DNA from: Phycisphaerae bacterium
Lineage (GTDB): Bacteria > Planctomycetota > Phycisphaerae > SM23-33
Length of the DNA: 64,000 nucleotides
NCBI GenBank assembly: GCA_016931655.1
Contig: JAFGEJ010000200.1
Location: 6,015 to 70,014 of the forward strand
Direction: 5' to 3'
The notes beneath the pieces are model-generated. The model made no database searches. It had not been told where the DNA came from and worked only from the letters and a program-made list of their open reading frames with translations. Below, piece after piece: positions 4,514 to 59,102 of this stretch. The first letter of the stretch is position 1; the number at the start of each line of letters is the position of its first letter. Both the position numbers and the translations under genes were made by a program.

Positions 4514-4529
4514 GGCAAGGAGTAGTCGT

Positions 4530-6791
4530 ATGAGTCTGGTGCCGACCCGAAAAGAGACGCCACAGATCGTTCCGGCCGGGCGGGGTGTGCCGCTTTCCGC
4601 GGGGCCCCGGGCGCCGGGTCCCTCCGCGCCGGCCGGCGGAGGCGCCGGGATCACCGGAAAAGACATTCTTCGAATGCTTCGCCGGCGCAAGTGGATGATC
4701 ATTCTCTCGGTGTTCATTTTTACCGTGGCGGCAGGCGTCTCAACGTGGTTGTGGCTGATGTATGCGCCGTTGTACACCTCCAGCGCGTTTTTAAAGGTCA
4801 ATCCCCCCAAGGCCTCGGAAATGCACGCGGGGAATCAGTTTTTGGGCGAGGACATCATGGAGCGTCTGATGATGACGTATGCCCAGGCGTCGGCATCGGA
4901 AAAGGTGCTTGGCGAGGCGGCCAAGGCGCTCATTCACACGCACTGGTACAGTGAAGCCAACCAGGCCGGGTCCGACCCCGTGCAGGTGCTGATGAAGGAA
5001 GTCAGCATCGGCATGGTACCCAAAACCAGTCTGCTTCGCGTATCCATGACCGGCCAGGATCGAAATGAAATTACGGAAATTGTCAACGCCGTTGCCACCG
5101 CGGCGGAAAAAGACTCCCAAACGGATGCCGGTGACGCGCATAACCAGGCGATCCTTCGAATACAAGCCGAAAGAAAGAGCATGGAAAATGTTCGCGACGA
5201 AAACGCGAATAAAATCCAGGCTCTGCAGGAACGAGGTCTGGGCGGCGAAGCCGTCGAATCCCGGGCGACCATTGCCTACAAACAAGGAGCATATGTATCA
5301 ACGCTCTCTCAACTGACGGAAGAATTCAAGCAGGTGGCGAAGGCCTGGGACAACATCAAAGGATTGACGGATGAAGAATTGGCCCAGCAGCCGGAAGTGC
5401 AGCAAATGCTGAACGCAGACCCGGAACTGCAACAGCTTCGCTATCGTGTTTTGGGTTTGAAAATTGATCTGGCCGCGATGAAAGATCGTTTCGGTCCGAA
5501 CCACAAATCCATCATCCGACTGGAAACAGCCTTAAGCAGTGCTCAGGAGTTACTGGAACAAAAGAAACAGGAATTGACTCAGCAGAATGTCCAACAACTC
5601 AAAATTCTGCGAGAAAACGATTTTCTGCAGAGGCAGGAAGCGATCATCGAGCTGGGCAACAAGATTAAAGACCTGGACGAGAAACTCAAAACCCTGGAAA
5701 AACAGGAAAATGAGTTACTCCGCGCCAAGGAAAACGAAGACGCCGCCGAGGAAAGCATCGCCGAAATGGATGCGCGCCTCATGGACCTGCGCATGTTGAT
5801 GCAGGGGGAACGACCACTGGTGCTGTATCGTCGCGCCATGCCCCCGCGGGAACCCTCCACGCCGAAATATATCATCATGATCCCCGCCGGTGTAATGCTG
5901 GGGCTGGTTCTGGGCGTTGGGTTGGCGTTTCTGCTGGAGTTCCTCGACACGTCCATCAAGGCTCCCTCGGACGTTTCGCGGCGGGTGGACCTGCCCCTGT
6001 TGGGCATGATCCCGCACCTGGACGACGTCGAGGAAGACATCGAGGACATGCGCCTGGCGTTCCTGACGAATCCCAAAGCCATCATTTCCGAAGCCTTTCG
6101 CCAGACCCGAACCACCCTGATGTTCAGTGGGACGGCCGAGCAGCGCAAAAGCATCCTGATCTCCAGCGCCATGCCCGAAGACGGGCGCACGACGGTGGCG
6201 CTGAATCTCGCTCACGCCATTGTCTCCGGCGGGAAAAAGGTGCTCGTGGTGGACGCCAATTTCCGCCAGCCCATGATCCGAACGCTGTTTCCCCAGTGTC
6301 CTGACGGCGGCCTTTCCACCGCCCTGGTCGGACAGGCCGACTGGCGCAGTCTGGTGCACGAGGTGGAAGAGAACCTGTACGTGATGGCGTCGGGTCCTCA
6401 GCCGCCGAATCCCGCCGACCTGCTCGGATCCGGCCAGATGCGCAGGCAGATCGAGGAATTCTGCGAGGAATACGACCAGATCCTTTTTGACAGCAGCCCG
6501 TGTCTCGTTGTTTCCGACGCGGTGACTCTCAGTACCATGGTGGAAGGCGCGATCCTCGTGGTCCGGGCGGGCGTCAATACATATGGCATCGTCCAGCGGG
6601 CGCGCGACATGATTACCCGTCTGGGTACGCCGATTTTCGGCGTGATCTTGAACGGCGTGCGCGTCACCGCCGGCGGGTACCTGCGAAAGAACTACGAAAC
6701 GTTCTACGAGTATCGCGAGCAGCCCAAACTCGCCGCCGCGGAGGTTGGCGCCGATACGACGGCGACAGAGACCGCCGAGGAAGAGGAATAA
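4530..6791 (+). CDS. Polysaccharide co-polymerase / tyrosine autokinase (Wzc/GumC-like BY-kinase) with an N-terminal transmembrane domain and a C-terminal P-loop kinase
   Basis: ATG at 4530 is preceded by AAGGAG. The track ORF 4296..6791 overlaps the TPR gene and its real start is internal. TM helix WMIILSVFIFTVAAGVSTWLWLM, then long coiled-coil. Walker-A-like ISSAMPEDGRTTVALNLAHAIVSGGKKVLVVDANFRQP and a DxxP-like FDSSPCLVVSDAV motif. C-terminal Tyr cluster YLRKNYETFYEY. Confidence 0.75.
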   Translation: MSLVPTRKETPQIVPAGRGVPLSAGPRAPGPSAPAGGGAGITGKDILRMLRRRKWMIILSVFIFTVAAGVSTWLWLMYAPLYTSSAFLKVNPPKASEMHAGNQFLGEDIMERLMMTYAQASASEKVLGEAAKALIHTHWYSEANQAGSDPVQVLMKEVSIGMVPKTSLLRVSMTGQDRNEITEIVNAVATAAEKDSQTDAGDAHNQAILRIQAERKSMENVRDENANKIQALQERGLGGEAVESRATIAYKQGAYVSTLSQLTEEFKQVAKAWDNIKGLTDEELAQQPEVQQMLNADPELQQLRYRVLGLKIDLAAMKDRFGPNHKSIIRLETALSSAQELLEQKKQELTQQNVQQLKILRENDFLQRQEAIIELGNKIKDLDEKLKTLEKQENELLRAKENEDAAEESIAEMDARLMDLRMLMQGERPLVLYRRAMPPREPSTPKYIIMIPAGVMLGLVLGVGLAFLLEFLDTSIKAPSDVSRRVDLPLLGMIPHLDDVEEDIEDMRLAFLTNPKAIISEAFRQTRTTLMFSGTAEQRKSILISSAMPEDGRTTVALNLAHAIVSGGKKVLVVDANFRQPMIRTLFPQCPDGGLSTALVGQADWRSLVHEVEENLYVMASGPQPPNPADLLGSGQMRRQIEEFCEEYDQILFDSSPCLVVSDAVTLSTMVEGAILVVRAGVNTYGIVQRARDMITRLGTPIFGVILNGVRVTAGGYLRKNYETFYEYREQPKLAAAEVGADTTATETAEEEE

Positions 6792-30132: not shown

Positions 30133-33100
30133 TCAGGCGTCCTGGCCGCGCAGAGCGCGGGTCACGGAACGGCAGAGATCTTCAGGAGAAAAGGGTTTCT
30201 GGAGGAAGTTCACCTTGGCGAAGTGGATTTCGCGGCGGAGGGTTTTTTCGTCGGTGAATCCGGAGATGAACAGAACGCGCAGGTGCTTGTATTGTTGTTG
30301 AAGCATTTTCGCCAGCGTCGGCCCGCTGGTTCCGGGCATCACGACGTCGGAGACCAGCAGATCGATGGTTCGGCCGGCCTGTTCGACAAGGCAGGGCGCA
30401 TCTTCGGGCACACCGGTTTCGAGCACCGTGTAGCCGTGTTCCCGCAGAACGCGAACCACCAGTTGTCGGACGGTGGCGTCGTCTTCGACGACGAGAATGG
30501 TTTCGTCGCCTCTTTCGGCGGGTGTGGTTTCGCCCAGGGGCGTTTCGACGTCCAGGGGCGCCGAGACCCGCGGCAAGTACATGCGGAACGACGTTCCGCG
30601 GCCGGGGTAACTTTCCACGTGGATGTGTCCGTCGCTCTGCTGCACGAAGCCGTACACCATCGAGAGTCCCAGGCCGGTGCCTTTGCCTTTCTTTTTCGTG
30701 GAAAAGAACGGCTCAAAGATCTGTTCGGTGGTTTCGGCGTCCATACCCAGGCCGGTGTCTTTCACTTCGATCATCACCATCGGCTGGGTCAGCCCCAGGG
30801 CCCGCAAGTCCGGGACGTCCTCGGCGTTTTCGATGTTGGCCGTGCGAATCACCAGGTCGCCACCGTTGGGCATGGCGTCGCGGGCGTTGATGGCAAGGTT
30901 CATCACCGCCTGTTCGAGGCGGTTGGGGTCCACGCGGATATGCCCCGCGTCTTTCTGCAGCTCCAGTTGCAGGCGAATGTCTTCTCCCACCAGGCCCAGC
31001 GACTTGCGGATGTCTTCGAGGATTCGGTTGGGATTGACGACCTGGGGCTTGAGGATCTGTTTACGGCTGAAGGACAGCAGTTCGCTGGTGAGCGTGGAGG
31101 CCTGGCGCGTGGCGTGGTCCACCTGCTCGATGCATTCCCGCACGGGGCTGGCTGCGTCCAGGTCGCGCAGCAGCAGGTCGCAGTATCCGCGAACGACGGT
31201 CAGTTGGTTGTTGAAGTCGTGCGCGATGCCGCCGGCCAGTCGGCCGATGGCTTCCATTTTGGCGGCCTGGCGCAACTGGGCCTCCAGGTGCGCCTCCTTG
31301 GAAACGTCCCGCAGGATGTGCACGAAATGGGTGATGTCTCCGCCCTCCTCGTTTCGGACGGGGGAAAGGTTTACCTCCACCTCCAGCGCCTCCCCGCCTT
31401 TGCGGCGGACCGCCATGCGCTTCAGCCAGGCGCGGCCGTCGAGCATGGCCTGGTACATGTTTCGGAGGGAATCCGGCTCGTTCGGATCGTTGTAAAACAG
31501 GCTCATGTTATGATCGAGCACGTCTTCGGTTTCGTATCCGAGCATTTTCGCGACGCCCTGGTTGACGTATTCGACGGTTCCGTCGCTGCCGGTGATGACG
31601 ACGGCTTCGGAGGCCTGTTCGATCGCCGAAGCAAGGCGCACCCGCTCCCGCTCGGTGTTCACGCCGGTGATCAGGTTCGCCAGGGTGGCGGCCAGGAGCG
31701 TCAACACCCGCTGCTGCACGGGGGAGATTTCCTTTCCGGATATGAGGGAATCGGCGGAGAGGTATCCGATGACTTCATGTCCGTTCCAGAGCGTCGCCAC
31801 GGCGTTGGGGCCTTCGCCGACCCGTTTTGCCCTGTGGTCAAACAGGTTGTGAACTCGATAGTACGTCTTGGGCGACGATTCCTGCAGCGCCTGACGAACC
31901 AGCGCATCGCCCGCAATGGACAACTGATTTCCCCGCTCATCGCGAAGAATGCCGTTTTCATCCACGCCGTAGGACCCGTACACGATGTTCGGATCGTCGC
32001 TCTTGAACCAGATTCCCAGGCGTTCGAATCCCAGGCGCTCGTGGGCCAGTTCCACTGCCCGTCGGCAGAGTCCTTCCCAGTCGCGCTGGGTTGTCAAATC
32101 CACGATGACCTCGTGCAGGGTGGTGAGTTTTTCGCGCGACAGTCTTTCGGTTTCCTCGGATTTCCGTAGGGACTCCTCGGCCTGTTTGCGGGCGGTGATG
32201 TCCTGGAAGTTCACGATAATGACGTTTCGATCTCCCAGGGAAATTTTCCGAAAACTTCGGAGCACCGGAACGTCACGCCCGTCTTTGGTGCGAATTTGTC
32301 CCTCTACGTTCACAAATTGTTCTTCGTCGGATTCCTGCAGAAGGTGGAGTTCCGGAGATTCCACGCTGAACAACTGGCACGGCCGGCCGAGCAGTTCGTC
32401 CCGCGCGTATCCCGTCAACTGGCAGAGGACTTCGTTAACGTCTTCGACGCACCCCTTTTCGTTAACGATGTAGCTGTAACCGGGCAATCCTTCATACAAC
32501 ATGTGCCAATGGGCCTCGCGCTGCCGGAGCAATTTCTCGCGTCGACGGCGGCGTAGCATGCTGGCCAGCAAAAGCAGGATCAGGAGCGTCAGCCCACACA
32601 AGGTTGCCCCGGCAGCCAGCAGAACGTTCCGATGGCGCTGATAAAACGACGGATGCGGAAACAGAATTTCCGCGCCGGCCGGCAGACGGGAGACGTCCAC
32701 GCCGAAGCGGCGCAGGGCCCGGCCGTCAAAGACGTAGCGGTTGGGGCTTTGGATGTGGACGGGGATCGCGTCAGCGGATTCGCCGTTCAGGATGCGCCGG
32801 GCGAGTTTGCCTGCTTCCTCGCCCTGCCGTCGGCCACTGACGACCTTCCCGCCCAGAACGCCCGTGTTCATCGTGTATTCCCAGCACGTAAAAATCGGCG
32901 CCCGGGATCGTTCCGCCAGGCGGGTAATCCCGGCGATTTCGTCCACGGAGTACCCGTGTTTATCGCGGTTCAGCGCCAGGCGCAACACAAGGGCGTCGGA
33001 AGGCAACTGCTCCACTTCTCGCAGAAGCTCTTCCATATCCCAGTCTTCCCGGATCGTGCAGGGAATCTGCAGCGGCGCCTGCTGGGCGGCCTGGAGAAAC

Positions 33101-33729
33101 AACTGCTTGTTCACCTGTCCCGTCGTGGTTTTGTCGGTGATGACGAACAGGCTCCGGGCCCTGGGAAACAACGCCTGGGCCGTCTGGAGCGTCTCGCCGA
33201 CCTCGATCGTCTCGACGACACCGGTATACCCCGTTTTCCCCTCGAGCATGTCGGGCGTGTAATTGTTGATGCCGCAAAATACCACCGGAACGTTCGGAAA
33301 CAGCCTCTCCCGATACCGGAAAAGAAAATCCAGGGCATTGTTGTCCGAAGCAATAATGACGGCAAAGGAGGTGTTTTTGTACTTTTTCTCGTAGAAGTCC
33401 GCCAGTTCCGCGAAATACTCCGGGCTGGAGAGAAACTTCGTGTCCATGTGTTCCGTGTAAATGTCCACGTTTTTATCTTTGCCCAGAATGTCCAGGATGC
33501 CTTTATGCAGGCTGGAAGACCAGGGCGAATCGTGATGGTACGAATCCAGGTGCAGGACGCGCAGCGCCTCCGCCGCCGGGCGCGACTGCGCCAGGATGGG
33601 CCCGGAGATCATCGCAAGGGCAAAAAACACGAGTCCCCACCGGAAGACGGCGCCGCCTCGCGGAACCATCGCGAATTCCCTCCGTCCCAACATGCCGTTT
33701 CCTGTAGCCATGAGTTCAAATCCGCCCAC
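30133..33729 (-). CDS. Large hybrid sensor histidine kinase: periplasmic ABC-substrate-binding-like domain, TM, PAS/GAF modules, HisKA, HATPase, C-terminal receiver
   Basis: About 1190 aa. N-terminal signal/TM FRWGLVFFALAMISGPILAQS, then a solute-binding-like domain and the TM LLAAGATLCGLTLLILLLLASML. H-box IAHDFNNQL. ATPase GLGLSMVYGFV. Receiver TILVVEDDATVRQL. The start could be ATG 33669. Confidence 0.8.
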   Translation of the reverse strand: MGGFELMATGNGMLGRREFAMVPRGGAVFRWGLVFFALAMISGPILAQSRPAAEALRVLHLDSYHHDSPWSSSLHKGILDILGKDKNVDIYTEHMDTKFLSSPEYFAELADFYEKKYKNTSFAVIIASDNNALDFLFRYRERLFPNVPVVFCGINNYTPDMLEGKTGYTGVVETIEVGETLQTAQALFPRARSLFVITDKTTTGQVNKQLFLQAAQQAPLQIPCTIREDWDMEELLREVEQLPSDALVLRLALNRDKHGYSVDEIAGITRLAERSRAPIFTCWEYTMNTGVLGGKVVSGRRQGEEAGKLARRILNGESADAIPVHIQSPNRYVFDGRALRRFGVDVSRLPAGAEILFPHPSFYQRHRNVLLAAGATLCGLTLLILLLLASMLRRRRREKLLRQREAHWHMLYEGLPGYSYIVNEKGCVEDVNEVLCQLTGYARDELLGRPCQLFSVESPELHLLQESDEEQFVNVEGQIRTKDGRDVPVLRSFRKISLGDRNVIIVNFQDITARKQAEESLRKSEETERLSREKLTTLHEVIVDLTTQRDWEGLCRRAVELAHERLGFERLGIWFKSDDPNIVYGSYGVDENGILRDERGNQLSIAGDALVRQALQESSPKTYYRVHNLFDHRAKRVGEGPNAVATLWNGHEVIGYLSADSLISGKEISPVQQRVLTLLAATLANLITGVNTERERVRLASAIEQASEAVVITGSDGTVEYVNQGVAKMLGYETEDVLDHNMSLFYNDPNEPDSLRNMYQAMLDGRAWLKRMAVRRKGGEALEVEVNLSPVRNEEGGDITHFVHILRDVSKEAHLEAQLRQAAKMEAIGRLAGGIAHDFNNQLTVVRGYCDLLLRDLDAASPVRECIEQVDHATRQASTLTSELLSFSRKQILKPQVVNPNRILEDIRKSLGLVGEDIRLQLELQKDAGHIRVDPNRLEQAVMNLAINARDAMPNGGDLVIRTANIENAEDVPDLRALGLTQPMVMIEVKDTGLGMDAETTEQIFEPFFSTKKKGKGTGLGLSMVYGFVQQSDGHIHVESYPGRGTSFRMYLPRVSAPLDVETPLGETTPAERGDETILVVEDDATVRQLVVRVLREHGYTVLETGVPEDAPCLVEQAGRTIDLLVSDVVMPGTSGPTLAKMLQQQYKHLRVLFISGFTDEKTLRREIHFAKVNFLQKPFSPEDLCRSVTRALRGQDA

Positions 33730-33825: not shown

Positions 33826-34656
33826 TTAATTGTTTTTTTCTCGGACAATTTGAAAAATTGCCAGGCATTGGCGAAGAACGCCTTCCATGTCCTCCAGTGC
33901 GATTTGGCTGGCCGCGTCGGACAGCGCCTTTTCCGGCGTGGGGTGGGTTTCGATGAACAGGCCGTCCGCCCCGGCCGCCATGGCGGCCCGCGCGAGCAGG
34001 GGTGCGTATTCCCGCTGGCCTCCCGAAGCCGACCCCAGGCCGCCGGGTTGCTGGACCGAGTGGGTCGCGTCAAAGACCACCGGGGCATATTCCTGCATCT
34101 GCGGAATCGACCGCATGTCCGTCACCAGGCGGTTGTATCCGAAAAACGTGCCCCGTTCGGTCAGCAGTACGCCGTGGTTGATATAGGCGTTGACTTTCGC
34201 CACGGCGTTTTTCATATCCCACGGGGCCATGAACTGGCCTTTTTTGATGTTGACGGCCTTGCCGGTCTTGCCCGCGGCGATGAGCAGATCGGTCTGGCGG
34301 CACAGAAAGGCGGGGATTTGCAGGCAGTCGACGACCTCGGCTACCGGCTCGGCTTGGGACGGCTCGTGGATGTCCGTCAGGACGGGCACGTGCACCTCGC
34401 GGGCGACCCTCGCCAGCCAATCCAGTCCTTCCTTCATGCCCGGCCCGCGATAGCTCTCGGCGCTGGAACGGTTGGCTTTGTCGAAGCTGGCCTTGAATAC
34501 GTATCCCACGTCCAGCCGGTCGCAGAGTGTCTTCATGTGCCTGGCCACGGCGAGGCACAGGTCGAGACTCTCGGCCATGCAGGGCCCGGCGATCAGGGCC
34601 AGTCGCCCCTCGCCGAACGTCACGTCGCCGACGGCGCACAGATCGGGTTTCGTCAT
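33826..34656 (-). CDS. kdsA: 3-deoxy-8-phosphooctulonate (KDO-8-P) synthase
   Basis: ATG at 34656 preceded by [16 protein letters not shown]...[12 protein letters not shown]... 276 aa. The N-terminal extension of track ORF 33826..34917 was rejected. Confidence 0.88.
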
Positions 34657-35591
34657 ACGGGGGCTCCTTTCCAGGGCCAAAACGGCCCGGGCCAGCCGGG
34701 AGGACTGCCCGGTACGATCAACTTGATTTTGCGGGGCGAGATCGAGATGTCCAGCGGTGTGGTGGGGCCCAGGTCGCCGTCGAGCTGGCAGTGGACGGGT
34801 TTGTCGGACTCCACGCGAATCCGCCGGGCCTGCCGGTAGATCACGTTGCCCTTGAGCGGATGGAGGCGCAGGAGCGTCCAGGCGGCGTGCAGCAGCAGGC
34901 GGGCCTGCTGGTCGCACTCAAAGACGACCAGGTCCAGCAGGCCGTCGTCGAAGCGGGCGTCGCGGCAGATGCGCAGGCCGGAGGAATAGCGGGAGATGTT
35001 ACCCACGAACACCAGACCCTGCCCCTGGAAGATCGTTTCGCCGTCGGCCTGCACGAGCAATCGTGGAAAATTGTGTTCCCAGAACGTCCGCCAGATCGGC
35101 CAAAAGTAGCTCAGGTGGGAGATGTGCCCCGTTCGGGTCCGGCTGACGCGACGGACGACTTCGGCGTCGAATCCCACGCCGAGGATCGAGTGGAAGCTCA
35201 GGCCGTTAATCATGCCGATGTCACAGGCCATGATCTCGCCCGATTTGAGCAGCCCGACCAGATCGGCTGGTCGTTTGGGGATGGACAGTTCCTTGGCCAG
35301 CAGGTTTTCCGTGCCTGCCCGGACGGCCAGCAGCGGAACGTTCGTGTCGGCCAGCCCGTTGGCGACCTCGTTGACCGTGCCGTCCCCGCCCCAGGCGATC
35401 ACCGCCGAGGCCTGCGGCGCAATGGACTTCGCGTACCGGGTGGCGTCGGCGACGGCCTGGGTGACGTATTCCACGACCTCCCAGCCCGCCTGGCGGATTT
35501 CCCGGCGCAGCTCGCCCAGCAGGCGCTTCTGCCCGCCGTATCCGCTCCGCGGGTTGATCACGACGTGAACGGGTTTTCCGGTTTCAATCAT
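34653..35591 (-). CDS. Diacylglycerol-kinase-catalytic-domain lipid kinase (YegS/BmrU-like)
   Basis: [11 protein letters not shown]...[11 protein letters not shown] is a DAGK_cat signature. Its stop overlaps the kdsA start (ATGA). ATG 35591 chosen; GTG 35612 would extend into a hairpin element. Confidence 0.7.
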
Positions 35592-35606
35592 ATTGGTAAT
35601 AAGGCT

Positions 35607-35691
35607 CGACACAGAGTTCCTGAGAAACAGAGAAAAGAAGAGAAACGTTCTTTTCTAAAGGTATTCTCTGTTCCTCTGGAACTCTGTGTCG
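35607..35691. repeat. Long hairpin of the CACAGAG family in a divergent promoter region
   Basis: CGACACAGAGTTCCTGAGAAACAGAGAA, loop, TTCTCTGTTCCTCTGGAACTCTGTGTCG. Confidence 0.75.
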
Positions 35692-35883
35692 GATTTGTTG
35701 TTTTTCTTCCTGCCTGGAATCCGTTTTTCGTTCAGCCCGTCCAGACGCTCAATTGGGATTGCAGCGGCGGGCAGAGTGACTATAATACCGAATTCCGCGG
35801 TGAAGGCAATCCGCCTTCCGTTTCCCCGTCGGACGGCCACGACGCGAAAAAGAAACCATTAGCATAACGAGGAGATACGAGAC

Positions 35884-37215
35884 ATGGAACCGGCAATTTC
35901 CGACGCCCTGGACGCGATCCTCTCCCGGGACGCCTGGACGATCAACGATTATCAGGACCTCATGACGGCTCTCTCGACCGCCCCCGGCGCTTCCAACCGC
36001 TGCCGGCAGATTCTGGCGGACCTGGAGGCGAAAAACCCCTCGCCCCGGGGCGCCAAGGCGCTGATGATCGGCATCCTGCGATACATGCTCTGCCGCTTCG
36101 AGGAAGCGATCTCGGTTCTGGCCGACGCGACGGACAACCGGGATCGTCACTTCTTCGCCGGCCAGTGTTATCGCGCCTGCCGCCGGTTCGACCAGGCCGT
36201 CGAGGAATTCGAGCGGGCCAAGGCCCGCGGCTGGGAGGGGCCGGACGGCGACGTGCTGATCGTCGAAGCCCTGGCGATGGGCGGGAAACCCGACCAGGCC
36301 GCTAAAACCCTCAAGGGAATCGCCAGACAGGTCGACGGTACGGCAACGGGATTGTACCTCCAGGGTCTGCTGACGGAACTGGACGGCCGCGGCGAAGAGG
36401 CGGCGGAACTCTACGAACAGGCTCGCGATCTGAACCCGGCACACGGGGAAGCCACGTTTCGCCTGGCCTACTACCTCGACCTGCACGGCCAGGAGGAAGA
36501 GGCGGTCGAACTGTACCGCCAGTGCCTTTCTCATCCCCCCATCCACGCCAGCGCGCTGCTGAACCTGGCCGTCCTGCACGAGGATATGGGACAGTATGAC
36601 AAGGCCATCTCGTGTCTGAAGCGCCTGTTGGCGGTCAATCCGAATCATCCCCGCGCCCGGCTGTTTCTGCGCGACGCCCAGGCGTCACGCCACATGTACT
36701 ACGACGAAGACCAGGCCCGGCGCATCGCCAAGCGCAACGCCGTGCTGGATATCCCCGTAACGGACTTCGAGTTGTCCGTCCGGGCCCGAAACTGCCTCAA
36801 GAAAATGAACATTATGACCCTCGGAGACCTGGTACGCACCACGGAAACCGAACTGCTGGGATACAAAAACTTCGGGGAAACCTCGTTGAAGGAAATCAAG
36901 GACATGCTGGCCGCCAAGGGTCTGCGCCTGGGACAGGACAGTGAAGGCGCCGGCGGGGAATTGGGCGAACTGCTCGAGGAGATCGAGTCGGACGAGCCGG
37001 GCGCCGACCATGGCGCGGCGGCTTTGACCATCGAACAGGTGGAGTTTTCCGTTCGCGCCCGGCGCGTCCTGGAACAACTCAACGTCCGAACCCTCGGCGA
37101 CCTGGCCGCCAAGACCGAAGCCGAACTGCTCAGCCAGAAAAACTTCGGACAAACCAGCCTCGCCGAAATGCGCCAGCGCCTCTCGGAAAACGGATTGCAT
37201 TTCCGGGAAATGTAA
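35884..37215 (+). CDS. TPR-repeat protein with two C-terminal RNA-polymerase alpha-subunit CTD-like domains
   Basis: N-terminal about 280 aa of TPR. Two repeats follow: FELSVRARNCLKKMNIMTLGDLVRTTETELLGYKNFGETSLKEIKDMLAAKGLRLG and VEFSVRARRVLEQLNVRTLGDLAAKTEAELLSQKNFGQTSLAEMRQRLSENGLHF. Both closely match the RpoA alpha-CTD consensus (LTVRSANCLK...IGDLVQRTE.ELL...NLGKKSLTEIKDVL). Confidence 0.8.
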   Translation: MEPAISDALDAILSRDAWTINDYQDLMTALSTAPGASNRCRQILADLEAKNPSPRGAKALMIGILRYMLCRFEEAISVLADATDNRDRHFFAGQCYRACRRFDQAVEEFERAKARGWEGPDGDVLIVEALAMGGKPDQAAKTLKGIARQVDGTATGLYLQGLLTELDGRGEEAAELYEQARDLNPAHGEATFRLAYYLDLHGQEEEAVELYRQCLSHPPIHASALLNLAVLHEDMGQYDKAISCLKRLLAVNPNHPRARLFLRDAQASRHMYYDEDQARRIAKRNAVLDIPVTDFELSVRARNCLKKMNIMTLGDLVRTTETELLGYKNFGETSLKEIKDMLAAKGLRLGQDSEGAGGELGELLEEIESDEPGADHGAAALTIEQVEFSVRARRVLEQLNVRTLGDLAAKTEAELLSQKNFGQTSLAEMRQRLSENGLHFREM

Positions 37216-53418: not shown

Positions 53419-54459
53419 TTACTTCCCGATGTTCAGAAGCTCATCGGAGAACTCCGCCAGACCGATGCCCTGGGACGGGTTCGGGAGCGGTTCATCGCCG
53501 TAACGCGGTTTTCCATCGTGCACGGCGGCCAGGCCGGTGTAGAACAGCAGAACTTTACCCCGCCACCGGACGGGCTGAGCCACAGCGATCACGCTGCCGC
53601 AATCGAATCCACCCCGCGGACCGAGCGGAAGAATGGGTGTTCTGTCATTCTCGCGTTTCCACACCCAGCCGTTCGGACTGCTCAGAAGCTGCACGTCCAT
53701 TGTCTGATCTTCGGTATGGTGACAGTTCAGCAGTCCGCCGAAACCGCCCGCTGTCGTCCGGAAAGGCGTCAGCCAATAAAACTGCACGTCGGGAACGTCC
53801 TGCTCGTCGGGTTCGAAAATCGTGATCGGCCCCCGCCAGCCGCCCGCGAAATCCTCCGCCACCCAGAGCGAAATCCGCCGGTGCATGTACTTCAGGTTGT
53901 CCCGATCGGCGGGCAGGAGCGGATTGTACTTCCAGGTCTGCTGGTAGATGAGGGTTGTGGCCTTTTTGCGGGTCGGGTCCAGGTTTGGTTCGGTGGTAAT
54001 CATGGACATGGCGTCGTTGTGGTTGATAATCACCGGCCGCGTGTGCACGGGCTGCCAGTCCAGGCCGTCAGCGCTTTGGGCGAGGCAGATTCCCGCCTTC
54101 ATCGACTCGTCAGGCCGATCCCAATACACCATTTTCCACCGGCGGGCCGGATCGGTTTCTTGCGGGTTTCGGAGAATCGTCGCGGGCATGAATTCGCCCC
54201 AGCCGCACTGGTTGCCGCAGCCGCGCATGACGATATTGGTTCCGTCGCCGCAATCCGGTTTTGTCCAGGCACAGCCGTCCCGCGATCGGGCAAGGCAAAG
54301 CACATTGTTCAGCGACTTGTCCTCGAACCGAACCAGGTAATACAAAAGAAGATCGTCGGTTTCCTCGTCCGGAATCGCGGCGACGGCGAGAAACGACGAA
54401 TCCTTTTCCCATTCCTGATCGGCGGGGAAAATCGGCTGGGAAGATCGGTTCAAAAGCAT
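53419..54459 (-). CDS. Hypothetical beta-propeller glycoside-hydrolase-like protein (GH43/GH32/GH117-like fold, tentative)
   Basis: 346 aa, Trp/Gly-rich repeats (WGEFMPATI..WKMVYWD..WQPVHTRPVIINHND..). No signal peptide. Confidence 0.35.
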   Translation of the reverse strand: MLLNRSSQPIFPADQEWEKDSSFLAVAAIPDEETDDLLLYYLVRFEDKSLNNVLCLARSRDGCAWTKPDCGDGTNIVMRGCGNQCGWGEFMPATILRNPQETDPARRWKMVYWDRPDESMKAGICLAQSADGLDWQPVHTRPVIINHNDAMSMITTEPNLDPTRKKATTLIYQQTWKYNPLLPADRDNLKYMHRRISLWVAEDFAGGWRGPITIFEPDEQDVPDVQFYWLTPFRTTAGGFGGLLNCHHTEDQTMDVQLLSSPNGWVWKRENDRTPILPLGPRGGFDCGSVIAVAQPVRWRGKVLLFYTGLAAVHDGKPRYGDEPLPNPSQGIGLAEFSDELLNIGK

Positions 54460-54759
54460 GCTCTATCCTCTTGTTGAGTTTCAATCCTTCCACTTCTTGG
54501 AAAATTTCAGGACAAGCGAATGGACTCTCTAGGAATTTCTCTGATATACTTACAAGACGAGAAGACTATCCGGATATTTTGACGGCTGCAAGAATACATT
54601 TTCCCGTATCGGATAGATTGACCAAGTCCGCTGGATAAGCCGTTTGTGGGTACATATGCATAAATATCGCCTGTATCTTACGAATCGTTTTTTTCGCGAT
54701 AAACTTTACTATCGAATAGAAGTTAGCGATCTTGGAAAACAAATTTCCCTGCAACAAAA

Positions 54760-55701
54760 TTGCATCAGAGAGAAAGGCCTGGCGACGTGCGAGTAAATAA
54801 TATTCCACAAGCTTTTCCCTACCAAGGAAGCAAGCGAAAGCTAGCGTCAGTGATTCTCGCCTGTATTCCGAAAAACACACGCCGACTGGTGGAACCATTT
54901 GCGGGTTCCGCTGCCATATCGGTGGCGGCTGCCTGGAATGAAAGGGTAGATTCGTTTTGGCTCAATGATGCACATTCGCCTCTCATGGCACTATGGAATG
55001 CCATTCTCAACGCTCCCCTTGCTCTTGCCGACGACTATGAGAAAATCTGGACGGCGCAGCAGGGACGCGAAAAAGAGTATTACAATGCTGTCCGGGACAG
55101 ATTTAATCGGGATTCCCAGCCGGCGGATTTCCTTTTTCTCCTAGCACGATGCGTAAAAGCGGCGATTCGATATAACAGGAGTGGAGAATTCAATAACAGT
55201 CCGGATCACCGCCGTCTCGGAATGAAACCGGAGACAATGCGCAAAAATATCCTGATGGTTCACGAGGTATTGCGAGACCAGACAATGCTCACAACAGGGG
55301 ACTTCAGGGCGGTTCTTCGAAAGACGCGAAAAACAGATTTTGTCTATATGGACCCGCCATATCAAGGGGTCTGTAAAAATAGGGATAACCGATACGCGAA
55401 AAGCGTGGTATTCGAGGAATTTGTTAAGGAATTGAACGCTTTGAACGAGAGACAAATTCCCTTCATTGTCAGCTATGACGGCCGCACGGGAAACACGATA
55501 TACGGGGAGAAATTGCCTGAGTCCCTTGATTTGTTTCACAGTGAAATTTTTGTCGGAAGATCCACGCAGGCGACATTACTTGGCCGAAGTCACGATACAT
55601 ATGAATCGCTGTACCTGTCTCCGTTAGCGGTAAGAAGACTTGGTGATATTCCGAGAGTTCTTCGGGAAAACGAATCGACGGTTCAACTGTTGTTCGATTA
55701 A
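54760..55701 (+). CDS. Dam-family (D12 class, alpha group) N6-adenine DNA methyltransferase
   Basis: AFPYQGSKRKL...LVEPFAGSAAIS is the AdoMet-binding motif I region and VYMDPPYQG is the DPPY motif IV. Collinear with E. coli Dam. TTG 54760, or GTG 54787 with AGAAAGG upstream. AT-richer than the flanks. Confidence 0.8.
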   Translation: MHQRERPGDVRVNNIPQAFPYQGSKRKLASVILACIPKNTRRLVEPFAGSAAISVAAAWNERVDSFWLNDAHSPLMALWNAILNAPLALADDYEKIWTAQQGREKEYYNAVRDRFNRDSQPADFLFLLARCVKAAIRYNRSGEFNNSPDHRRLGMKPETMRKNILMVHEVLRDQTMLTTGDFRAVLRKTRKTDFVYMDPPYQGVCKNRDNRYAKSVVFEEFVKELNALNERQIPFIVSYDGRTGNTIYGEKLPESLDLFHSEIFVGRSTQATLLGRSHDTYESLYLSPLAVRRLGDIPRVLRENESTVQLLFD

Positions 55702-56435
55702 TGGGTTCTTTTCATCGTGTTTTTAATGAATACAACCAGGGAGACGCCGGTTTGTTCGCACCGTTTCCGCAATCGCTCATATTCCGCCACTTCCTCCGGT
55801 CCTATCCAGACAATCTCAACTCTGCGTCTCTCCTCCATTGCTATATGCTCATATTTTTCCGGGGAAGCCCAATAACATCGTTTACACGTTGCCGATCGTT
55901 TGAACTCCATCCAATTCCTGCAATGTTCACAAGACCAGCTTTTTTGTCGTTGCGCCGCCGTTGAAATCAACATAAATGCTGAAGGGTTCTCTTCGCCTGA
56001 AATTTGATCGCCCGCCACTTCATATGGAATTCGATGGTCTATGGAAAGATATCGCGGATGAAACGGTTCGCCCGTGATCGCGCAAACGGCCCCTCGTTGT
56101 TCAACGAGTAGTTTCTTGAATGCTTTTGAAAATACTTTTCGTCCTCCAAGTTTATGATGTTCAATTTTTGAAGGATCGCCGAAAATATATGCCGCGATAA
56201 GACGTCCGTCAGAATTACGAACTCGGATCGTATCTAGGGGAATTCCCTGTTCCCGAACATCGCGCGCGGCACGCGGAGCGTGGTTGTAACCGTATATATT
56301 TTTGAGATCCTCCGTTGTAATTTTACCGTGTTTTAGAATGTGGTTTATGACAGCCAGTGGTCGTTTGCCTGTAACTCTTCTGATCTGTGCTCGTATTTTC
56401 GGATGAACTTTCGCCATACTATTCTCATTCAACAC
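55698..56435 (-). CDS. HNH-family endonuclease, putative restriction endonuclease partner of the methyltransferase
   Basis: SIDHRIPYEVAGD ... CEHCRNW ... CKRCYW form an HNH core with Cys pairs. Convergent with the MTase and overlapping it by 4 nt. Same AT-richer composition. The start could be MAK at 56417. Confidence 0.6.
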   Translation of the reverse strand: MLNENSMAKVHPKIRAQIRRVTGKRPLAVINHILKHGKITTEDLKNIYGYNHAPRAARDVREQGIPLDTIRVRNSDGRLIAAYIFGDPSKIEHHKLGGRKVFSKAFKKLLVEQRGAVCAITGEPFHPRYLSIDHRIPYEVAGDQISGEENPSAFMLISTAAQRQKSWSCEHCRNWMEFKRSATCKRCYWASPEKYEHIAMEERRRVEIVWIGPEEVAEYERLRKRCEQTGVSLVVFIKNTMKRTH

Positions 56436-56657
56436 GTTGAAAATTTACTTCGTAACGCGGATGCGCGGAACTATGTGGCCTTCCCGTCGTAAAAGGATGA
56501 AATCACAGAACATATTTTATTTTCTGAAATTTGCGCATGTTATAACCGCCAAGAGGGAACCCGGCAATTTTAATTTGACGCCAGGCATTGGCGAAAAGGA
56601 TTTCATTACTGAGTACGGTTTCTCAAAACGCGCGAAACATCATTCTGGTGGAACAGA

Positions 56658-57512
56658 TCATCCCATGGGAATGGTTCCGACGGCGCGGAAGCGGCCTGGC
56701 GTCATGCCCAGGATGTGCTTGAAGGTGCGCGTGAAATGCGCGGGCGCGTCGTAGCCGAGGCGCACGGCGATTTCCTTGTGCGTCAGTTGGGTGGTTTTGA
56801 GCAGCCGGCAGGCCAGCAGCATCTTTTGCCGCAGCATATACCGCCGCGGCGTCCGGGAGGTCTGCTCCTTGAAGATGCGCGTCAGGTGCTCGCGCGAGAC
56901 CCTCAGCCGCTCCGCCAGCTCCGATACGTTCATGTTTTCGTGCAGGGTCTCGCGGATGATCTCGACGGCCCGGGCGGCCAGGCGGTTGCCCATATTGTCC
57001 TGACGGGGTTGTTCTTTGCTCTCGGCCAGCTCCGTCAGAAGACGTATCGCCAGCCGGCTGGCGAAGGCGGGGGAAATCCGAGGCCGGGCGTCATGGTAAT
57101 CGGCGAAAGACAGCATCTCCGCCACGACGCCGTCCTCACGCGGCAATTCATACACCGGCCCGTAGCGATGCAGCAGTTCACGCACCATCTCGAAGGCCGG
57201 CGCACCGGTAATGCTCATGTACACGAACGACCAGGGCTTGCTCGCGGCGGCGGGATAATAGTAGGCCGTCGCGGGATCGCGGATTTCACACAGAAACCCG
57301 CACCCGGCTGGGATTCGATGCTCGCCCGCGGCGTCGCGGAACACACCCTCCCCAGCCAGCGTGTATTTGAACAGGCAGGTCTCCTCCCTTCGCCGATATC
57401 GGCCTTCATGATGATACGACGGCTTGGAAACCGTCTCGCTGGCGACGGTGATTGCCCGCGGCAATGACGCCATCGGACGAAAGATCTGAAAATTCACGGC
57501 CCAGTGAATCAT
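56658..57512 (-). CDS. AraC/XylS-family transcriptional regulator (cupin + dual HTH)
   Basis: C-terminal ...MNVSELAERLRVSREHLTRIFKEQT...LTHKEIAVRLGYDAPAHFTRTFK... Divergent from the GH4 glycosidase gene. Confidence 0.8.
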   Translation of the reverse strand: MIHWAVNFQIFRPMASLPRAITVASETVSKPSYHHEGRYRRREETCLFKYTLAGEGVFRDAAGEHRIPAGCGFLCEIRDPATAYYYPAAASKPWSFVYMSITGAPAFEMVRELLHRYGPVYELPREDGVVAEMLSFADYHDARPRISPAFASRLAIRLLTELAESKEQPRQDNMGNRLAARAVEIIRETLHENMNVSELAERLRVSREHLTRIFKEQTSRTPRRYMLRQKMLLACRLLKTTQLTHKEIAVRLGYDAPAHFTRTFKHILGMTPGRFRAVGTIPMG

Positions 57513-57704
57513 GATATCACAAATTGGATAGTAATATCATTATTATACCCTTGCAACTTATATTTTGTGAGATATTCTTGATATTGAGGATGTGCACAAA
57601 ATGGTAAATTCATTGGTTGGTTGACCGGCGAATTGGCAACTCGGCCTATCGAGATGAGAGACAAACAGATGGAGTATTCCATCCGTCGAAGGAGTTGAAG
57701 AGAC

Positions 57705-59102
57705 ATGCCGAAAATTACGTTTCTTGGTGCGGGCAGCATGGTGTTTGCCAAGAATATTCTGGGCGATTCCATGCTCAAGCCGGCCTTGCGGGACAGCCAC
57801 ATCGCGCTGTATGACATTGACCCCGAGCGATTGAGCGACTCGAAGTTGATGCTCGAGAACCTGAACGCCAACATCAACGAAAATCGCTCGAAGATCACCA
57901 CCCACCTGGGCGTGGAAAACCGCAAAAAAGCACTCGACGGCGCGGATTACGTCATCAACGCCATCCAGGTCGGCGGATACAAACCCTCGACGGTGATCGA
58001 CTTTGAAATCCCGAAGAAATACGGCCTGCGGCAGACCATCGCCGATACGCTGGGCATCGGCGGCATCTTCCGGGCGCTGCGGACGATTCCGGTGATGTTC
58101 GATTTCGCGCGGGAGATGGAAACGGTCTGCCCGAACGCCTGGCTGCTGAATTACACCAACCCGGCCTCCATGAACGCCGGGGCCATGCTGCGCGGCACGG
58201 GCGTCAAGACCGTGGCCCTTTGCCATTCCGTACAAAATTGCGCAAGGAAACTTCTCCAAATCCTTCAGATGCTCGATGACGTGAAAGACCTGCGTTGGCG
58301 GATCGCGGGGATCAATCACCAGGCCTGGCTGCTGGACATCCGCGACGGGAACAGGGATTTGTACCCGGAGGTCCGCCGGCGCGGCGCCGAGGCGCTGAAA
58401 AAGCTCCGCAAACTCGGCGGCGCGAAGGTCGAGGCAGACGCCAGAAAACGCCTGGGCGACAAATGGCGGGACGATCCCGACGCGTGCATCGCCCATAATA
58501 TGGTCCGCCTGGAGATCATGAACCAGTTCGGATATTACCATACCGAGTCGTCCGAACACGCCAGCGAATACGTCCCCTGGTTCATCAAGGCCGGGCATCC
58601 CGAACTGATCGACGAATATAACATCCCGCTGGATGAATACATCACCCGCTGCATCGACCAGATTGAGAACTGGAAAAAGCAGCGAAAGGAATTGGTGGGC
58701 AAGGCCCTGACGCATGAACAAACGCAGGAGTTCGGTTCGGGGATCATGAACGCCATGGAAACCGACGTGCCGTTCCGCATTCACGGTAACGTGTTGAATA
58801 ACGGCCTAATCACCAACCTGCCGTCTAAAGCCGTCGTGGAAGTACCCTGCCTTGTGGACAAGAACGGCGTGCAGGGATGCTACGTCGGCGATCTGCCGGA
58901 AGTCTGCGCCGCGATCAATCGCCTCAGCATCAACGTGCAGTTGCTGACGCTCGAAGCGTTGCTGACGGGAAAGAAGGACCCGGTCTACCAGGCCGCGATG
59001 CTCGATTCACACGCGGCGGCGGAACTGACCCTCGATGAAATCCGAAACATGTGCGACGACCTCTTCGAGGCCCACGGCGACATGCTGCCGAAATTGACGT
59101 AA
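57705..59102 (+). CDS. GH4-family NAD/Mn-dependent glycosidase (alpha-galactosidase/alpha-glucosidase, MelA/AglA-like)
   Basis: MPKITFLGAGSMVFA is the Rossmann motif. ...LNYTNP... and ...ALCHSV... are GH4 signatures. 465 aa. Confidence 0.8.
   Translation: MPKITFLGAGSMVFAKNILGDSMLKPALRDSHIALYDIDPERLSDSKLMLENLNANINENRSKITTHLGVENRKKALDGADYVINAIQVGGYKPSTVIDFEIPKKYGLRQTIADTLGIGGIFRALRTIPVMFDFAREMETVCPNAWLLNYTNPASMNAGAMLRGTGVKTVALCHSVQNCARKLLQILQMLDDVKDLRWRIAGINHQAWLLDIRDGNRDLYPEVRRRGAEALKKLRKLGGAKVEADARKRLGDKWRDDPDACIAHNMVRLEIMNQFGYYHTESSEHASEYVPWFIKAGHPELIDEYNIPLDEYITRCIDQIENWKKQRKELVGKALTHEQTQEFGSGIMNAMETDVPFRIHGNVLNNGLITNLPSKAVVEVPCLVDKNGVQGCYVGDLPEVCAAINRLSINVQLLTLEALLTGKKDPVYQAAMLDSHAAAELTLDEIRNMCDDLFEAHGDMLPKLT

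Follow-up and report, generated by a model that had tools for sequence, protein, structure and literature searches.

What does the module with which bacterial RNA polymerase reads promoters do when it occurs outside the polymerase alpha subunit, RpoA? By the textbook account, it is through the C-terminal domain of this subunit (alpha-CTD), normally regarded as a part of RpoA, that the polymerase recognizes UP elements and receives input from activators. In a 64,000-nucleotide (nt) stretch of DNA from a Phycisphaerae bacterium (contig JAFGEJ010000200.1, positions 6,015 to 70,014, forward strand; the whole stretch is referred to below as the window), one gene encodes a protein in which this module appears twice behind a tetratricopeptide repeat (TPR) scaffold. 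We found that an orthodox alpha-CTD, 54% identical to the Escherichia coli domain and with its groove-reading residues invariant, is here duplicated and fused to the scaffold, and that the architecture is held at a fixed length throughout hundreds of sequence clusters from a phylum with a little-studied transcription machinery.

Two alpha-CTD modules fused to a TPR solenoid

The gene and the parts of its product were delineated by direct reading of the sequence, by Pfam searches, and with an AlphaFold2 model built on 45 orthologues [mean predicted local distance difference test score (pLDDT) of 84.7; predicted template modeling score (pTM) of 0.59]. The features are as follows:

35884..37215, plus strand: complete coding sequence of the TPR-(alpha-CTD)x2 protein, 443 amino acids (aa) plus stop, with an ATG start
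35869..35874, plus strand: Shine-Dalgarno sequence GAGGAG, 9 nt 5′ of the ATG, from direct sequence reading; AGGAG is kept in orthologous loci
35884..36693, plus strand: helical TPR solenoid, aa 1 to 270, with TPR-only Pfam matches and 16 helices in the model
36694..36759, plus strand: conserved segment preceding the first alpha-CTD (pre-CTD segment), aa 271 to 292 (MYYDEDQARRIAKRNAVLDIPV), containing helix 275 to 288 (model boundaries)
36760..36918, plus strand: alpha-CTD copy 1 (CTD1), aa 293 to 345, a PF03118 match and a compact helical domain in the model
36919..37032, plus strand: flexible acidic linker, aa 346 to 383, with pLDDT below 50 at residues 353 to 376
37033..37194, plus strand: alpha-CTD copy 2 (CTD2), aa 384 to 437, a PF03118 match and a second compact domain in the model

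The whole 443-aa protein matched PF03118 (RNA_pol_A_CTD) with 132 bits over two stretches, alongside many TPR families, multiple of which (PF14559, PF07719, PF13428, and others) scored above their own cut-offs. When the two C-terminal fragments were scored separately, the CTD1 fragment (aa 271 to 350) reached 81.3 bits (E = 4e-23) and the CTD2 fragment (aa 375 to 443) reached 59.3 bits (E = 3e-16), both above the PF03118 gathering cut-off of 23.8 bits. PF03118 was the sole family at E ≤ 0.001 for either fragment, and generic helix-hairpin-helix (HhH) families reached E values of ~0.006 to 0.008 at best in the whole-protein scan. Solved structures of the alpha-CTD matched the entire length of CTD1 (E. 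coli 1lb2_B, E = 5.6e-15). CTD1 is identical to the E. coli alpha-CTD at 36/67 positions (54%) and to its own neighbor CTD2 at 29/66 (44%), i.e., it resembles the E. coli domain more closely than it resembles the second copy; a BLASTP comparison of the two copies gave 50% identity over 58 aligned residues (E = 9e-20).

Residues 1 to 270 matched TPR-type Pfam families only, and no alpha N-terminal domain was detected among them by the Pfam scan. The RpoA equivalog models aligned with the CTD portion only and stayed far below their cut-offs (TIGR02027, 123.8 versus 227.8; NF003513, 133.2 versus 302). Judged by its sequence, the 443-aa protein is not RpoA, because the alpha N-terminal domain is absent. 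A preliminary description of this DNA, made from the letters alone, had claimed a free-standing protein with two C-terminal alpha-CTD repeats fused to a TPR scaffold, had proposed a search for two PF03118 matches, and had pointed out that the repeats might prove to be generic HhH motifs of another family. Both matches were recovered, no better-fitting HhH family emerged, and the claim is borne out in each of these respects.

In the structural model, the TPR solenoid comprises 16 helices up to residue 270, with pLDDT values of ~90 to 97 from residue 40 onward. Its net charge is −9 in the window protein (family mean, −12); that of the linker is −9 (family mean, −3), and the CTDs of the family are near neutral. 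The N terminus, read directly without a predictor, is not signal peptide–like. A Foldseek search of the Protein Data Bank (PDB) returned generic TPR superhelices only (an 8-repeat designed TPR, OGT, and APC subunits), with no solved protein of TPR-(alpha-CTD)x2 architecture among the matches.

Family conservation and the groove-reading residues

A protein 100% identical to the product of the gene is on record as 'MAG: tetratricopeptide repeat protein [Phycisphaerae bacterium]' (P0001). All of the 120 matches listed cover 97 to 100% of the query at 56 to 79% identity, and nearly all are 435 to 455 aa long; the sources named among them are metagenome-assembled genomes of Phycisphaerae and Planctomycetes, with one labeled Hydrogenedentes. 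Some members carry the NCBI name 'DNA-directed RNA polymerase subunit alpha C-terminal domain-containing protein', others 'tetratricopeptide repeat protein'. An exhaustive HMMER search over 1.84 billion cluster representatives gave 438 clusters (50% identity level) at E ≤ 1e-30, and the top 150 of these 438 are mostly full length, 36 to 50% identical, and ~435 to 470 aa long. A second homologue search, seeded with a distant member, returned only metagenome-assembled genomes labeled 'Planctomycetota bacterium'; no cultured host was found among the members returned by the homologue searches.

The family can be recognized by a length of ~435 to 470 aa and by the order of its parts: TPR, the 22-aa segment, CTD1 with NFGETSL, a variable acidic linker, and CTD2 with NFGQTSL. 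Every one of these features is present in the window protein. By these sequence comparisons, it belongs to a large family of fixed length that is conserved across Phycisphaerae and other Planctomycetota. The alpha-CTD itself is already known from textbooks, and databases name the family generically; we found no study of the TPR-(alpha-CTD)x2 architecture in the literature that was searched. What is new is the architecture: tandem, fused to TPR, phylum-wide, and strongly constrained.

Conservation was calculated from an alignment of 362 full-length family members, to which the column identities and residue percentages below refer. There are no insertions or deletions in the 22-aa pre-CTD segment, in the 53-aa CTD1, or in the 54-aa CTD2; the linker ranges from 23 to 61 aa. 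Mean column identity is 0.81 in CTD1, 0.65 in CTD2, 0.65 in the pre-CTD segment, 0.48 in the TPR, and 0.33 at the N terminus. By this measure, no other part of the protein is as constrained as CTD1.

In the E. coli domain, R265 and N294 reach into the UP element's narrow minor groove, while K291 and K298 form salt bridges with phosphates (PMC7822876). The 265 surface doubles as a protein-contact surface for Rob, MarA, SoxS, and TAP (PMC9178005). Family residues are given below in E. coli numbering (a CTD1 residue is the E. coli residue + 35, and a CTD2 residue is the E. coli residue + 126):

R265 equivalent: CTD1, R 100%; CTD2, R 99%
N294 equivalent: CTD1, N 100%; CTD2, N 98%
G296 equivalent: CTD1, G 100%; CTD2, G 99%
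S299 equivalent: CTD1, S 99%; CTD2, S 99%
E302 equivalent: CTD1, E 100%; CTD2, E 99%
N268 equivalent: CTD1, N 96%; CTD2, R/K 85%
C269 equivalent: CTD1, C 99%; CTD2, A/C/V, variable
V264 equivalent: CTD1, V 98%; CTD2, V/I 93%
D259 equivalent (sigma region 4 contact): CTD1, D 94%; CTD2, E/Q/D, variable
E261 equivalent (sigma region 4 contact): CTD1, E 98%; CTD2, E/D 85%
K298 equivalent: CTD1, T 99%; CTD2, T 95%
K291 equivalent: CTD1, S/A/G; CTD2, A/S/G
K297 equivalent: CTD1, E 95%; CTD2, Q 78%
A267 position, new basic residue: CTD1, R 99%; CTD2, R 90%
A272 position, new basic residue: CTD1, K/R 93%
P293 position, new basic residue: CTD1, K 96%; CTD2, K/R 86%

The family thus shares with the RpoA alpha-CTD (PF03118; E. 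coli structures 1lb2, 1coo, and 3k4g) the fold and the domain family, here twice, and CTD1 keeps R265, N268, C269, N294, G296, S299, E302, and the 261 determinant (D259 and E261). Flexible tethers carry the two copies, an arrangement also seen in the alpha dimer; unlike in RpoA, both copies are part of one polypeptide, and a 270-aa TPR solenoid replaces the assembly domain at the alpha N terminus. In contrast to the E. coli alpha-CTD, both copies have T298 and S/A/G291, CTD1 has E297, and basic residues are fixed at A267, A272, and P293. The positions of CTD1 that do vary map to the equivalent of the CAP-contact "287" patch and not to the 265 or 261 patches. The picture suggested by these residues is one of a groove-reading surface under strong selection whose electrostatics have been rearranged, and the fixed basic residues beside this surface could be substitutes for the lost lysines. 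In functional terms, the family most resembles the alpha-CTD itself.

Possible modes of action and related proteins

Domain identity, architecture, conservation pattern, promoter, and gene context were observed directly. From them, we infer DNA binding, polymerase contact, a TPR partner, and a global role as components of a single possible function: the protein may be a constitutive cytoplasmic adaptor, with its alpha-CTD modules on DNA or polymerase surfaces and its TPR holding a partner, that acts genome-wide. We give this reading a probability of roughly 40%. The adaptor would be expressed constitutively in the cytoplasm and would be specific to Planctomycetota, mostly Phycisphaerae. Its two HhH modules would grip DNA as the alpha-CTD of RNA polymerase does, with Arg and Asn entering the narrow minor groove and the hairpin backbone sitting on DNA phosphates, and CTD1 would probably also contact polymerase partners of the alpha-CTD, e.g., sigma region 4. 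The two alpha-CTDs of one polymerase reach adjacent minor grooves, and two modules on a disordered linker of 23 to 61 residues could span adjacent grooves as well. With a protein partner bound by the TPR solenoid, the outcome would be either a partner tethered to DNA or promoter complexes or the supply of a second, trans-acting alpha-CTD pair, and in either case, the action would be genome-wide rather than local. If the protein acts at promoters or on polymerase, its family would form a new class among global transcription factors or accessory subunits.

The adaptor reading is supported by the retention of R265 and N294 in 98 to 100% of members in both copies and by the D259 and E261 equivalents kept in CTD1. 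Together, these residues are compatible with UP-like DNA binding, with alpha-CTD mimicry, and with the tethering of a partner. Also in favor of the adaptor are the true alpha-CTD identity of both domains, the strong constraint on CTD1 and its greater likeness to the E. coli domain than to CTD2, the basic residues fixed near the 265 surface, and the position of the CTD1 variation on the 287 patch equivalent. Several observations weigh against it. The lysines equivalent to K298 and K291 are replaced in both copies, which speaks against a plain UP-element reader, and position 297 in CTD1 is occupied by glutamate; these changes should weaken DNA binding of the alpha-CTD type if they are not offset by the new basic residues. 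Both the TPR and the linker are strongly acidic, and the low pTM of 0.59 makes the relative placement of the domains in the model uncertain. Conservation of the 265 surface does not separate DNA from protein ligands, because in E. coli this surface also binds proteins. T298 may be specific to the family or typical of the lineage; when the lineage's own RpoA was looked for, neither an alpha-CTD outside this gene nor an alpha N-terminal domain was found in the window or in the loci examined until then.

The same residues bear on a second explanation, in which the protein does not bind DNA at all and its modules are protein-only decoys or mimics of the alpha-CTD. Their surfaces would be offered to activators, sigma region 4, or NusA-like factors, sequestering them or bridging them to TPR cargo. 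The loss of the phosphate-contact lysines in both copies, the K297-to-E change in CTD1, and the overall acidity of the protein favor such a decoy, as do the documented use of the 265 determinant as a protein-contact surface (PMC9178005), the retained D259 and E261 of CTD1, and the high conservation of every CTD1 face, which multiple protein interfaces would produce. However, in both copies the documented minor-groove inserters, R265 and N294, do not vary, and right beside them the family has fixed new basic residues. We consider a decoy possible but rather unlikely; a protein of this kind would amount to an inbuilt control on activator traffic.

A further possibility, rather unlikely in our estimate, is that Planctomycetota, and Phycisphaerae above all, possess in this protein a dedicated, trans-acting alpha-CTD pair: a conserved factor, either an accessory subunit or one for promoter recognition, that docks on RNA polymerase or sigma region 4 via CTD1, the TPR, or both and reads upstream promoter DNA by contacts of the R265/N294 type. 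This would add a layer of promoter architecture undescribed in model bacteria, and T298 and E297 would then curb competition with the CTDs of RpoA.

Modules of the PF03118 type also occur outside RpoA in the BREX kinase PglW, in PRK07758, and in the viral proteins described below. In contrast to the family studied here, these proteins have the module only once, by itself or joined to a kinase, HTH_3, or sigma-70 region 4–like domain, and there is neither a TPR solenoid nor a tandem pair. PglW is a protein of ~1400 aa with a Ser/Thr kinase core and BREX gene neighbors. The PglW model (NF033442; PADLOC PDLC02512) aligned, in its alpha-CTD-like segment, with aa 263 to 353 only and gave 31 bits versus a cut-off of 990, so that the window protein falls outside PglW, and no BREX genes were seen among the neighbors of the gene. 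PRK07758 (NF005841), a stand-alone protein of ~95 aa as compared to 443 aa here, gave 44.6 bits versus a cut-off of 115 and matched the CTDs only. Both scores are due to the shared domain alone. An origin in a defense system or phage was considered and rejected, as PADLOC and PHROGs yielded domain-level PglW or TPR matches only.

Regulators of the RRNPP family (PlcR/NprR/Rap-like) and HilA/EilA combine a ligand- or partner-binding TPR domain with a small DNA-binding module in one chain. They are local or quorum regulators whose DNA-binding module is a helix-turn-helix or winged-helix domain, usually N-terminal to the TPR. The family described here instead has a pair of alpha-CTD HhH domains at the C terminus as its DNA-type modules, and the HilA model gave the window protein 17 bits versus a cut-off of 589. 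The resemblance is an analogy, with no homology beyond the TPR, and it offers a useful working model.

A scan of viral contigs with the family motifs revealed 13 loci (L099 to L111, IMG/VR; match at ~3001 to 3290 in each) that encode a single alpha-CTD-like domain. Eight of the 13 were confirmed by PF03118 matches of 40 to 72 bits, and contigs of 100 to 210 kb are included. The search pattern required NFGxTS, and the result accordingly shows that such proteins exist, not how frequent they are. The R265 equivalent is retained in every protein whose sequence was read. The set includes stand-alone proteins of 72 to 143 aa; the protein of L110 is fused to HTH_3, and those of L104 and L111 have weak sigma-70 region 4–like matches. 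A possible role for these proteins is that of phage factors imitating or exploiting alpha-CTD contacts. As far as their sequences go, they indicate that the TPR-(alpha-CTD)x2 family is not alone in employing, outside RpoA, alpha-CTD-type modules in which T replaces K298, and these single-module proteins, retrieved by the NFGxTS pattern, suggest that such use is wider than generally appreciated. The N termini of the L105 and L108 proteins (MMYYDPKQMEP) recall the invariant MYYDED motif that precedes CTD1 in the family (aa 271 to 276 of the window protein), a resemblance that may be due to chance.

Gene neighborhood, promoter, and intergenic hairpin

The surroundings of the gene include the following features:

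34653-35591, minus strand: DAGK_cat/YegS-type lipid kinase gene, divergent neighbor
33826-34656, minus strand: kdsA, beyond the lipid kinase gene
35759..35786, plus strand: predicted sigma-70-like promoter with TTGCAG (35759-35764), a 16-nt spacer, and TATAAT (35781-35786)
35607-35620 and 35678-35691: perfect 14-bp outer arms of the CACAGAG hairpin (CGACACAGAGTTCC), with inner pairing, just upstream of the lipid kinase start

On the 3′ side, the gene is followed in the window by genes for a HAD hydrolase, a beta-carbonic anhydrase, an isochorismatase-like protein, and a cofactor-independent phosphoglycerate mutase. In the first distant loci examined, a same-strand ruvA lay immediately downstream in 11/11 cases, with differing upstream genes. 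The sample was then widened by 80 metagenome loci, and 81 loci had enough downstream sequence to be evaluated. The next gene downstream encodes a SpoIID-domain protein in 50 of these, is ruvA in 13, and is another gene in 18, the window included. After the SpoIID-domain gene, the order commonly continues with tgt and yajC. In the ruvA-type loci, ruvA is on the same strand with a gap of usually 8 to 90 bp, and ruvB is not adjacent to it except in L007 (8001-12530), where the order is family gene-ruvA-ruvB-SpoIID.

The gene order ruvAB-queA-tgt-yajC is ancient and conserved among bacteria. The loci compared (L007; L012 to L018; L019 to L098) are most simply explained by a family gene that has long stood at the head of a housekeeping string, ruvA(-ruvB)-SpoIID-tgt-yajC, with the string broken differently in different lineages. 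The neighborhood points to a core, constitutively expressed gene rather than to one specific pathway partner.

An accessory role in RuvAB-linked recombination or repair, in which the HhH modules would sit on branched or duplex DNA and the TPR would recruit Ruv or repair proteins, would explain why ruvA follows so closely on the same strand in 13 loci whose upstream genes differ and why ruvB joins it in L007, and RuvA is likewise an HhH DNA binder. The adjacency is probably inherited gene order, however: ruvA is downstream in only 13 of the 81 evaluable loci as compared to 50 for SpoIID, and it is missing from the vicinity of the gene in the window and its closest relatives. On the 50-to-13 count, the idea of ruvA as a partner was downgraded to probable inherited order, and we regard the RuvAB role as improbable.

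Still less probable is a scaffold of the cell envelope or division machinery, in which the TPR would organize peptidoglycan or lipopolysaccharide enzymes and the alpha-CTD-like domains would have been redeployed outside transcription. The SpoIID-like gene downstream in 50/81 loci, the lipid kinase and kdsA upstream in 26 loci and in the window, and MurA-family (Pfam EPSP_synthase) genes upstream in several ruvA-type loci are the neighbors that such a scaffold would be expected to have. Nevertheless, these neighbors span several pathways and differ between clades, aa 1 to 270 are of TPR type only with no obvious signal peptide by direct reading, and the strongest constraint falls on an orthodox alpha-CTD whose nucleic acid–contact residues are intact.

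Upstream of the family gene, the predicted plus-strand promoter would give a 5′ untranslated region of ~90 nt. In an alignment of 7 orthologous intergenic regions, TATAAT was invariant and the TTGCA(G) box was conserved, and TTGNNN-N16-TATAAT was present in 8/8 loci of the window clade, 95 to 187 nt 5′ of the start. One of these loci, L004, has no lipid kinase neighbor, and since the promoter is retained there, it should belong to the family gene. The near-consensus promoter with its invariant TATAAT and the housekeeping neighbors (ruvA/ruvB and SpoIID-tgt-yajC) argue for a core, constitutively made factor, as the adaptor reading supposes. A consensus scanner passed over the plus-strand promoter because its −35 box matches at 3/6 positions only, but on the minus strand it called an overlapping site, TTGCCT-16-TATTAT, a candidate promoter of the lipid kinase operon. 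At 35759-35809, the plus-strand TTGCAG-N16-TATAAT and the minus-strand TTGCCT-N16-TATTAT share an overlapping −10 box, and a bidirectional promoter is possible; orthologous loci partly conserve the GGCAAT block, which makes up the minus-strand −35 box.

The divergent lipid kinase/kdsA neighbors named in the preliminary description are present in the window, and the pairing recurs, with an intergenic region of 130 to 370 bp, in 26 of the 98 related loci examined, which include close and moderately distant relatives. At this frequency, the tie to the neighboring operon that the description had implied is not supported for the family. Its CACAGAG hairpin fared in two ways. The structure exists: in addition to the perfect 14-bp arms, the hairpin-spanning 111-nt stretch (35595-35705) has a folding energy of −48.8 kcal/mol (z = −8.4). 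Its link to the gene was not upheld, as the hairpin was absent from the orthologous intergenic regions (0/6 compared). It occurs once in the 64-kb window, and Rfam returned only sub-threshold microRNA-precursor look-alikes. A regulatory element of the locus, missing in orthologous loci and single-copy in the window, was therefore rejected. The hairpin looks like a lineage-specific, palindromic insertion outside the conserved apparatus of the gene, possibly a miniature inverted-repeat transposable element (MITE)– or repetitive extragenic palindromic (REP)–like element or a structure in the 5′ untranslated region of the lipid kinase/kdsA operon. A local regulator of that operon acting through the intergenic hairpin or palindrome, as the divergent layout with a shared 130- to 370-bp region in 26 loci and the window and the minus-strand promoter-like site overlapping the conserved TATAAT might suggest, is hardly credible given that the hairpin is absent from 6/6 orthologous regions and present once in the window, that most family members are not beside lipid kinase/kdsA genes, that the conserved promoter survives in L004 without a lipid kinase, and that local regulators usually show much less conservation and uniformity than this family.

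Downstream of kdsA on the same strand, a gene at 30133-33729 (minus strand) encodes a 1198-aa hybrid sensor kinase with ABC-type substrate-binding-like, PAS, HisKA-HATPase, and receiver domains. It occupies the same position in three related loci (L001, L002, and L010), and a related kinase is found nearby in L011. The remainder of the window is ordinary chromosome, with dnaG, secA, murA, and histidine kinases. At 59-4513 (plus strand), it encodes a giant 1484-aa protein with TPR-type family matches only, followed at 4296-6791 (plus strand) by a Wzz/AAA_31 (chain-length determinant/tyrosine kinase–like) protein; AT skew across these two genes is unusually strong and positive (0.16 to 0.20). 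The segment at 54001-58000, beside genes for a GH4 glycosidase and a type II/IV secretion adenosine triphosphatase, has a GC content of 0.49 to 0.53 as compared to ~0.60 elsewhere and could have been acquired recently.

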